From a virus (Duplodnaviria; Heunggongvirae; Uroviricota; Caudoviricetes), in the IMG/VR virus record IMGVR_UViG_3300023174_000034: 64,000 nucleotides of DNA. One strand, 5' to 3'. Made by a program: the position numbers and the translations under genes. The notes below the pieces were generated by a model. It did no database searches. It saw nothing but the letters and a program-made list of their open reading frames with translations, and was not told where the DNA came from. Of this stretch, positions 15,443-16,001 are shown piece by piece (the stretch's first letter is position 1; each line of letters opens with the position of its first letter).

Positions 15443-15471
15443 TTGACAACAGGTGCAAATAAATATATACT
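15443..15471 (+). promoter_or_regulatory. Sigma70 promoter (TTGACA-N17-TATACT) for the tmRNA precursor.
   Basis: Near-consensus boxes about 7 nt upstream of the tRNA-like acceptor piece. Confidence 0.55.
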
Positions 15472-15477
15472 GTAGGT

Positions 15478-15542
15478 TATTGCTGTATGAAGCGGAAGGA
15501 AAAGTGTTCTGGACGCGGGTTCGACTCCCGCCACCTCCACCA
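15478..15542 (+). ncRNA. ssrA: tmRNA acceptor piece of a permuted (two-piece) ssrA gene, ending in CCA.
   Basis: ...UUCUGGACGCGGGUUCGACUCCCGCCACCUCCACCA. T-stem GCGGG/CCCGC with loop TTCGACT, 3' acceptor strand CACCUCC, discriminator A and encoded CCA. Near-identical to the E. coli tmRNA 3' end GGACGCGGGUUCAACUCCCGCCAGCUCCACCA. Confidence 0.7.
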
Positions 15543-15725
15543 TAAGGAAATTTGTGAAAAGTAAGAGTAAGTTCAGTCGTTATAATCTTAAAGGCAATAT
15601 TATGTGGTGCCTAAATTTGCGTAACGGATGGGTAAGAATTTACAACACTATGATTCGTTGGAATACCGATTGGACAACTAATTATAGATACTTTTCAATA
15701 GAACAAATAAAAGTTTCTTTATGAT

Positions 15726-15978
15726 GGGGGTGACCTGGCTTTCGACAGGGCAAAGAGTAAACAAGTGGACAGCACGGTAAGGCAGAAACCGTAGGGTTGG
15801 GGGAACTCGGCCGTAGACGCAAAAAACGTAAATGCAAAAGCAAATACAACATCTGGTGTTAAAGTAACAGTAGGCAAAGGTTTCCGTTTCGGCGGTTCCA
15901 AGTCTGCTCGCACTGAGGCAGCTTTCGCCTAAACAGCGAAACCAGCGGGGTAGGACTTACCTTGTAAAATAAACAACC
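15726..15978 (+). ncRNA. ssrA: tmRNA coding piece: 5' acceptor strand, tag reading frame 15819-15932 and 3' helices.
   Basis: Starts GGGGGUGACCUGGCUUUCGACAGGG (compare E. coli GGGGCUGAUUCUGGAUUCGACGGG). GGGGGUG pairs with CACCUCC of the upstream piece, giving a G3:U70 wobble. Resume context UAGAC-GCA (E. coli UAGUC-GCA). The frame stays open to TAA. Confidence 0.7.
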
Positions 15979-16001
15979 ATGGGCCTCCGGGCCCATTTTT
16001 C
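15979..16001 (+). terminator. Rho-independent terminator (ATGGGCCtccgGGCCCAT + TTTTT) ending the tmRNA precursor.
   Basis: 7-bp stem followed by a T5 run. Confidence 0.65.

Follow-up and report, generated by a model that had tools for sequence, protein, structure and literature searches.

Transfer-messenger RNA (tmRNA) together with SmpB forms the main ribosome-rescue system of bacteria. Two-piece tmRNAs are described for Caulobacter crescentus and other alphaproteobacteria, for some betaproteobacteria and for marine cyanobacteria (Keiler 2000 and Sharkady & Williams 2004, as cited in PMC9004378). Phages carry them as well: 53 two-piece tmRNAs were found among 18,146 phage genomes by Buchholz et al. 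2022 (PMC9004378), examples being those of Methylophilales phage Melnitz, the pelagimyophages, the Caulobacter phages CcrSC/CcrBL9 and Synechococcus phage S-CBWM1 (PMC9004378), and phage-borne tmRNAs and SmpB in huge phages are likewise documented (PMC7162821, PMC9004378). Cargo inside tmRNA genes is also on record, namely group I introns with homing-endonuclease genes in the T-loop, and a tRNA-Ala or a repetitive element in the permuted spacer (PMC11915505). Here we analyze a locus with a permuted tmRNA gene in a 64,000-nucleotide stretch of DNA from a virus of the Caudoviricetes (IMG/VR record IMGVR_UViG_3300023174_000034), referred to as a whole as the window. In its basic form the gene is of an already known kind; a long tag restricted to phages and a small protein gene nested in its spacer set the locus apart. 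From comparative sequence evidence we consider it very probable that the phage possesses in this locus a functional tmRNA gene of circularly permuted, two-piece form.

The gene is recognized by two independent kinds of model. ARAGORN calls a permuted tmRNA (tmRNA*) at 15450-16023, the sole gene that it reports in the 64-kb window, with the tag AKANTTSGVKVTVGKGFRFGGSKSARTEAAFA, while the Rfam family RF04321 (tmRNA_permuted) matches positions 15481-15932 with 96.6 bits against a gathering score of 47 (E = 1.7e-17), and does so end to end, over model positions 1-213 of 213. The standard, non-permuted Rfam tmRNA model matches the 3' tRNA-like part alone, and an Rfam scan at E up to 10 lists no alpha-, beta- or cyano-specific tmRNA model for the coding piece alone, the three models concerned (RF01849, RF01850 and RF01851) having been merged into RF04321 (PMC11915505); the gene could thus be placed in none of the three lineages. 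A sequence-only reading of the locus, made before this analysis, had proposed both halves of a tmRNA in permuted order, and the sequence bears it out element by element: the T-stem, its loop, the acceptor strand and the CCA (15540-15542) lie upstream of the 5' G at 15726, with a 183-nt spacer in between. As that reading had also seen, the first seven nucleotides of the 5' half, GGGGGUG at 15726-15732, pair 7/7 with CACCUCC at 15532-15538, in such a way that G15728:U15536 becomes the G3:U70 pair. The near identity of the 3' half to the 3' end of Escherichia coli tmRNA, noted at the same time, was measured as ~91% over 35 nt against ssrA in all 5,426 complete E. coli genomes. The parts of the two pieces, all on the + strand, are as follows.

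15478-15542, +: acceptor piece (3' tRNA-like half), with the 3' strands of helix P2, the T-arm, the acceptor 3' strand, the discriminator A and the encoded CCA; from ARAGORN and from the Rfam alignment, which begins at 15481, the 5' end at 15478 being deduced from promoter spacing
15515-15531, +: T-arm, stem GCGGG (15515-15519)/CCCGC (15527-15531) and loop UUCGACU (15520-15526), read from the sequence
15532-15542, +: acceptor-stem 3' strand CACCUCC (15532-15538), which pairs 7/7 with 15726-15732, then A-CCA (15539-15542)
15726-16001, +: coding piece, with the acceptor 5' strand, D-loop analogue, P2 5' strands, two hairpins, tag frame, 3' hairpins and terminator; from Rfam and ARAGORN
15726-15732, +: acceptor-stem 5' strand GGGGGUG, from its pairing with CACCUCC
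15746-15774, +: P2 5' strands, CAGGGCA (15746-15752) facing UGUUCUG (15505-15511) in the inner helix and CAGCA (15770-15774) facing UGCUG (15481-15485) in the outer helix (Rfam structure)
15775-15791 and 15795-15812, +: two hairpins at the position of the first pseudoknot (PK1), CGGU-loop-ACCG and GGUUGGG-GGAA-CUCGGCC, respectively, from the alignment of homologues
15834-15932, +: tag frame of 32 codons plus TAA, placed by ARAGORN (385-483 within the gene) and by the Rfam consensus; product AKANTTSGVKVTVGKGFRFGGSKSARTEAAFA
15923-15941, +: stop-codon hairpin UUUCGC/GCGAAA with the UAA (TAA 15930-15932) in its loop, read from the sequence
15948-15962, +: hairpin GGGUA-GGACU-UACCU downstream of the stop codon, conserved and co-varying

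Homologous loci, which the sequence-only reading had suggested looking for in related phages, were found in more than 30 uncultured phage contigs, some of up to 355 kb. In related contigs of 144-355 kb the homologues detected with ARAGORN and nhmmer lie near the same AAA-ATPase gene; an nhmmer profile of the coding piece finds homologues in 43 fetched loci (cited below by our L numbers where needed), and a scan with the tag-coding pattern adds more. For the covariation analysis 19 distinct copies were aligned with their spacers spliced out, and the pairs were counted. Standard pairs form in 96.6% of the predicted-pair cells, compared with 42-52% after a shift of the 3' partners by 1-3 columns, double (both-side) changes occur in 26 of the 37 pairs, and the observed values were reached by 0/500 shuffles.

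The helices that join the two pieces follow this pattern. The acceptor stem, formed across the gap, is paired to 100% in at least nine different sequences (e.g. GGGGGUG/CACCUCC, GGGCCUG/CAGGUCC, GGGUCCG/CGGAUCC, GGGGAUG/CAUCUCC, GGGGCAC/GUGCUCC and GUGGCGG/CCGCUAC) with double changes in 5/7 pairs, and G3:U70 is invariant (19/19 copies). The inner P2 helix shows double changes in 6/7 pairs, while for the outer one the covariation can be followed by eye in the alignment (GCUG/CAGC, GUUG/CAAC, GUAG/CUAC). Within the pieces, compensatory changes affect 5/5 pairs of the T-arm, the first hairpin after P2 (15775-15791) has double changes in 3/4 pairs, and the hairpin at 15948-15962 in 4/5, with 96.8% of its cells paired. 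The second hairpin at the PK1 position (15795-15812) shows, as read from the alignment of the window's subgroup, compensatory variants and GNRA-like loops. The stop-codon hairpin was not picked by RNAalifold; the subgroup of L112 has an equivalent of other sequence, CAGU-UUAAUC-ACUG. Since the acceptor stem co-varies across the gap and G3:U70 never changes, selection must have acted on a two-piece, alanine-accepting tRNA-like domain.

Concerning the tag, the sequence-only reading had let its frame begin at GCA 15819, which follows UAGAC. The frame is indeed there, and its start probably lies 15 nt further downstream: the most likely resume codon is GCA 15834, after GUAAAU, a position on which ARAGORN and the Rfam consensus agree. 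The two codons share one reading frame in the window, L154 and L099, and the last 32 residues are the same from either. In L096, a close relative present in two metagenomes, the loss of one nucleotide shifts the upstream GCA into another frame, in which it would read AKK-stop, and it is this, together with the ARAGORN and Rfam alignment, that favours 15834. The resume-codon context UA(A/G)A(U/C)-GCN is retained in the homologues.

The tag comprises 32 encoded residues, is long and basic, and ends in AAFA instead of LAA, hence it is not a canonical ssrA degradation tag of the ClpXP/SspB type, short and with an ...(L/V/A)AA end. The commonest tag length is 10 residues (PMC11915505), which makes the present one about three times as long. 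Two related tag types occur, one with the sequence ...VKVTVGKGFRFGGSKSARTEAAFA (found in the window; its variants end in AAFA or AALA) and one with ...EVTVSAGKGIRFSARSSVKAETFAV, and sister variants end in FAV or ALA. The tag frame is open in 17/17 unique homologous versions, in which indels are whole codons and the 32-codon frame, the stop codon and the stop hairpin are kept. The motif [KR]G[FI]RF and its 13-codon spacing to the stop are shared by two subgroups that differ at roughly half of their nucleotides, and some pairs within the first tag type have a ratio of nonsynonymous to synonymous polymorphism (pN/pS) of 0.09-0.3.

A scan for the tag pattern retrieved it from 31 viral contigs and gave no genuine match among 185,579 bacterial and archaeal species genomes. 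The sole bacterial match, L181, on a contig of a Caldilineaceae metagenome-assembled genome, was discarded as a chance match, having neither a tmRNA nor similarity to the window. This coding piece and tag type is also absent among 50,697 phage records in GenBank, and the motifs AAFA, GFRF and ETFAV were not found in the supplement of PMC9004378. The tag type is confined to phages and looks new.

The second particular feature of the locus is the part between the two pieces, for which the following elements, again on the + strand, were recorded.

15543-15725, +: intervening sequence of 183 nt and 30% G+C, predicted to be removed on maturation, with a closing stem of 15543-15553 with 15711-15721
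15554-15724, +: spacer open reading frame (ORF) of 56 codons, with a GTG start and AAGGAA (15544-15549) four nt upstream; product VKSKSKFSRYNLKGNIMWCLNLRNGWVRIYNTMIRWNTDWTTNYRYFSIEQIKVSL

Across the family the intervening sequence measures 23-209 nt and its sequence is not conserved between subgroups. Its ends form, in nearly all members, a closing duplex of 9-12 bp that extends the acceptor stem, each of different sequence, and the minimum-free-energy fold of the window precursor recovers this closing stem (z = -3.8). The ORF inside it is longer than the one found in 4,998 of 5,000 dinucleotide shuffles, only two being as long. Its homologues are 81-98% identical and lie mostly within tmRNA spacers; among 11 unique copies the variable sites are distributed 11/8/20 over codon positions 1/2/3, and pN/pS is 0.21. 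The homologue in L184 starts with ATG, the frame is kept in L154 despite a 12-nt deletion, and the ORF persists in L183 and L185, where the tmRNA has decayed around it. The genes that contain it encode either ordinary tags (ANDELYAMAA, ANDEQFALAA, ANDSQFALAA) or the long tag type. From this pattern of variation we conclude that the predicted ORF is a real protein-coding gene under purifying selection.

The three longest spacers of the family are each filled by one ORF, with 56 codons in the window, 61 in L125 and 32 in L111. The latter two are unrelated to the window's; the basic ORF of L125 is matched in length by 7/5,000 shuffles and the hydrophobic one of L111 by 74/5,000. The 56-aa protein of the window is tryptophan-rich and basic and has no Pfam or PHROG match, and its AlphaFold2 model, built from a shallow alignment, is an unreliable all-beta prediction (mean predicted local distance difference test score, pLDDT, 54). 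Literature searches brought up no case of a protein encoded within a tmRNA spacer, and the tmRNA database paper, which mentions a tRNA gene and a repetitive element in this position, names no protein gene (PMC11915505), hence a nested protein gene of this kind looks new. Given that the spacer encodes what we take as a genuine 56-aa protein, the unprocessed transcript would double as messenger and tmRNA precursor. Taken a step further, and tentatively, the permuted-tmRNA spacer may be a slot for protein-coding genes, which with the phage-only 33-residue tag and its lack of a ClpX-type end would make up a phage-tailored trans-translation module instead of a borrowed host gene; we hold this to be possible, at somewhat less than even chances. 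A role of the small spacer protein in ribosome rescue, or in what becomes of tagged proteins, is conceivable.

Acceptor stems, spacers and tags are shuffled among the related phages, the same spacer being found with different acceptor stems and tags. Three loci illustrate the arrangements seen. L184 (358-849) has an acceptor piece and a spacer that match those of the window, and its tag is the canonical ANDELYAMAA. In L183 (1418-1740) a decayed copy of the acceptor piece and the spacer ORF stand upstream of a fresh acceptor piece, and L185 (534-1000) has a truncated coding piece with a promoter and a further ORF behind it.

The sequence-only reading had also assigned to the gene a near-consensus sigma70 promoter and a terminator of its own. 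Both were found again by scanning, at the same positions, and have counterparts in close relatives.

15443-15471, +: predicted sigma70-like promoter, TTGACA (15443-15448), 17-nt spacer and TATACT (15466-15471), 11/12 consensus positions
15979-16001, +: intrinsic terminator, a 7-bp G+C-rich hairpin (15979-15996) followed by TTTTT, from the terminator scan

Promoter spacing predicts a transcription start at ~15478. Comparable promoter-like sites stand at the same relative position in L099 (TTGACA-17-TACACT, 10/12) and L096 (TTTACA-17-TAGAAT, 10/12), and a hairpin with a T-run is found at the equivalent 3' site in all members, with differing stem sequences. The match to consensus and the conserved position in close relatives suggest that both elements are functional. 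In the subgroup of L112 and others the tmRNA gene stands behind a tRNA-Met and lacks a strong promoter, so that having its own promoter is a trait of the window's subgroup. The next ORF downstream (15979-16251, +) encodes a small hydrophobic protein and, with ATG 15979 as its start, would share sequence with the terminator hairpin.

As for the protein partner, one related contig of 104 kb (L153/L162) has an SmpB gene directly upstream of its permuted tmRNA (Pfam PF01668, 147 bits).

L153 ~1754-2176 (= L162 1691-2113), - strand of the locus: SmpB gene of the related contig, Pfam PF01668

A scan of viral contigs for SmpB, of a kind that detects close relatives only, returned the L153/L162 contigs and one distant contig.

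From the sequence we infer the following course of transcription, processing, charging, partnering with SmpB and tagging; what the tag and the small protein may do is likewise deduced. Host RNA polymerase would start at the sigma70-like promoter and stop at the intrinsic terminator, giving a transcript of ~520 nt. RNase P would cut 5' of G15726 and the 3' end would be trimmed to CCA15542, releasing the 183-nt spacer and leaving an acceptor piece of ~65 nt and a coding piece of ~275 nt, which the 7-bp acceptor stem and P2 would hold together. The RNA would be charged by the host alanyl-tRNA synthetase (AlaRS) through G3:U70 and, with an SmpB that may come from the host or from a phage gene beyond the window, would enter stalled ribosomes. 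Translation would resume at GCA 15834, so that Ala plus 32 residues ending in AAFA (C-terminal end GFRFGGSKSARTEAAFA) would be appended. The phage would thereby rescue ribosomes during infection, and the tagged products may meet a fate unlike that given by the host tag, either through a different protease or by escape from ClpXP; such a distinct fate is proposed because the tag is long and basic, lacks the LAA end and is of a type confined to phages.

Several observations weigh against a functional tmRNA gene working in this way. The resume codon is assigned by homology alone, and alignment inspection in three subgroups revealed no co-varying loop-to-downstream pairing for the PK1 pseudoknot, showing hairpins only. 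In two subgroups the tag has pN/pS of 0.51 and 0.75, which corresponds to moderate peptide-level constraint, and its invariant core CGUUUC may be conserved instead as one strand of an RNA helix (helices 5-6). Close relatives with the same acceptor piece and spacer carry ordinary 10-residue tags (ANDELYAMAA, ANDEQFALAA), so the long tag is not essential to the lineage. Finally, tblastn with the SmpB of L153 finds no SmpB gene in the 64-kb window. The non-canonical tag, its moderate constraint and the lack of SmpB in the window would all suit an RNA that works as a decoy or inhibitor, competing for SmpB, AlaRS or stalled ribosomes and thus blunting host trans-translation and the defence or physiology that depends on tmRNA, with the tag sequence being unimportant. 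A precedent can be cited, as the tag-less tRNA-like tmRNA of mycobacteriophage DS6A reportedly inhibits the cell's own tmRNA in E. coli (PMC11915505). Such an RNA, however, would not need the 32-codon frame, stop codon and stop hairpin that all 17 versions keep through whole-codon indels, nor the resume context retained in the homologues, which makes this role unlikely.

The gene could also be a passenger, captured from a bacterial host or from another phage and of no benefit to its carrier. tmRNA genes are common integration sites and fragments of them occur in phages (PMC9004378), modules are clearly exchanged, as described above (same spacer, different acceptor stems and tags), and decayed copies are seen in some relatives, of the acceptor piece in L183 and of the coding piece in L185. 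Yet over 30 contigs keep the gene, compensatory changes in it are plentiful and G3:U70 never varies, and recent capture from a sequenced host lineage is unlikely since the tag type occurs in 0 of the 185,579 species genomes; we give this explanation very little credit. The least credible possibility, raised by the sequence-only reading as what could undo it, is that the 3' fragment is an attachment-site (attP) remnant copied from the end of a host ssrA and that the GGGG piece is unrelated to it. Although ~91% identity to the E. coli ssrA 3' end is what such remnants would show, the halves pair 7/7, their covariation across the gap extends to every homologue, over at least nine stem variants, and the covariance model matches them end to end. 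Covariation across the gap and the invariant G3:U70 rule out both an attP-type remnant and a dead passenger, and the complete gene with its co-varying halves refutes the attP proposal, to which we assign a practically negligible probability. A functional two-piece tmRNA gene of the phage is thus the reading that we retain.

The tmRNA gene lies among phage genes: rIIA (8749-10941), rIIB (10925-11770), an AAA ATPase (11812-12888), a DNA ligase, and tail and virion proteins are found in the window. IMG/VR contains 58 relatives of the ATPase, the contigs that carry them reaching 355-367 kb in some cases, and for this reason the phage is placed in an uncultured group of very large phages; the related contig L099 has 355 kb. 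No near relative of the window at the DNA level was found among the 50,697 phage records, and the best protein relatives are distant and belong to phages of unrelated hosts, with the ATPase 54% identical to that of Microbacterium phage Pumpernickel and rIIA 32-44% identical to those of various phages. Auxiliary genes close to the tmRNA, at 6682-8064, 18301-19185 and 19207-20211, encode an AMP-binding acyl/aryl-CoA ligase-like enzyme, an LpxH-like metallophosphoesterase (below the family cut-off) and a GT4 glycosyltransferase. An attempt to derive the host from the protein relatives or from the LpxH-like phosphoesterase was abandoned, the relatives being distant and the phosphoesterase scoring 44.5 against a family cut-off of 134 bits. 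Two very large ORFs were also seen, one at 45843-52610 (2,255 aa, with a tail-protein match at its C-terminus) and one at 57163-62724 (1,853 aa, no PHROG match). By ARAGORN, the window has no tRNA gene in its 64 kb, and up to 19 tRNA genes are clustered beside the tmRNA in L112, L126, L128 and L152. Two related contigs have a tRNA-Pyl with anticodon CTA (ARAGORN; L139 7984-8058 and L156 4585-4661); these look like amber-suppressor tRNAs, and TAG may be recoded in the phages of L139 and L156.

Two suggestions of the sequence-only reading need qualifying in the light of what is already described. It had called a tmRNA in an rII-type phage unusual, which is less so given the 53 two-piece cases in phages (PMC9004378) and the related gene of Menderavirus, and it had taken the permuted form as a possible indication of the host clade. 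The form is no reliable pointer in this respect, because phage-borne two-piece tmRNAs are documented and the form of the gene tracks phage lineages, not hosts. Caution is hence due in deducing the host of a phage from the form of its tmRNA gene. On the other side, the family bears on why large phages carry their own copy of tmRNA, and it offers two handles on the question. One is a tag that is conserved in phages, absent from bacterial genomes and devoid of the usual protease-recognition end; the other is the small conserved protein in the excised spacer, with a possible coupling of tmRNA maturation to the translation of a phage protein. If the idea of a coding-spacer slot is true, a single primary transcript would serve as mRNA and as precursor of the two-piece tmRNA.

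Compared with the known systems, the locus shares with the bacterial two-piece tmRNAs the order acceptor piece-spacer-coding piece, the joining of the pieces by P1 and P2, the G3:U70 pair, the T-arm and the tag frame, and differs from them in being phage-borne, in its long coding spacer and in its non-canonical tag. The Melnitz/pelagimyophage type is alike in that the phage is large and of lytic type, its permuted gene follows an early-type promoter, and the form of the gene departs from what the host would lead one to expect. Here the tag has 32 codons and ends in AAFA and the spacer holds a protein gene, and a further difference is that an Rfam scan at gathering thresholds finds no glutamine riboswitch in the window. 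Towards the known phage two-piece genes there is no similarity at the DNA level outside the tRNA-like part. The best match to the acceptor piece, ~80% over 67-73 nt including the start UUGUAUGAAG, is given by Menderavirus (Stenotrophomonas phages Mendera, Moby and Bhz51) and by the Xanthomonas phages X1, BUDD and JGB6. Menderavirus has the same permuted order and, by eye, a similar layout of the coding piece, whereas its tag is short and canonical (VAANDDSYTVRIAA), its spacer of ~58 nt is without an ORF, and its gene lies in a tRNA cluster without a promoter of its own.

With respect to the tag, the nearest parallel is the ssrA tag of Mesoplasma florum and Mycoplasma, which is also long and has an ...AFA end in place of ...LAA. 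In Mesoplasma florum the tag has the end NYAFA, and the organism's Lon protease recognises it (PMC9382460); the likeness concerns the last three residues only, without sequence homology, and is thus a lead rather than a test of protease specificity. Finally, the cargo-bearing tmRNA genes resemble the present one in carrying extra genetic material in a part that is removed from the mature RNA, with the difference that the cargo here is not an intron, a tRNA or a repeat, and is instead a small protein-coding ORF under purifying selection.

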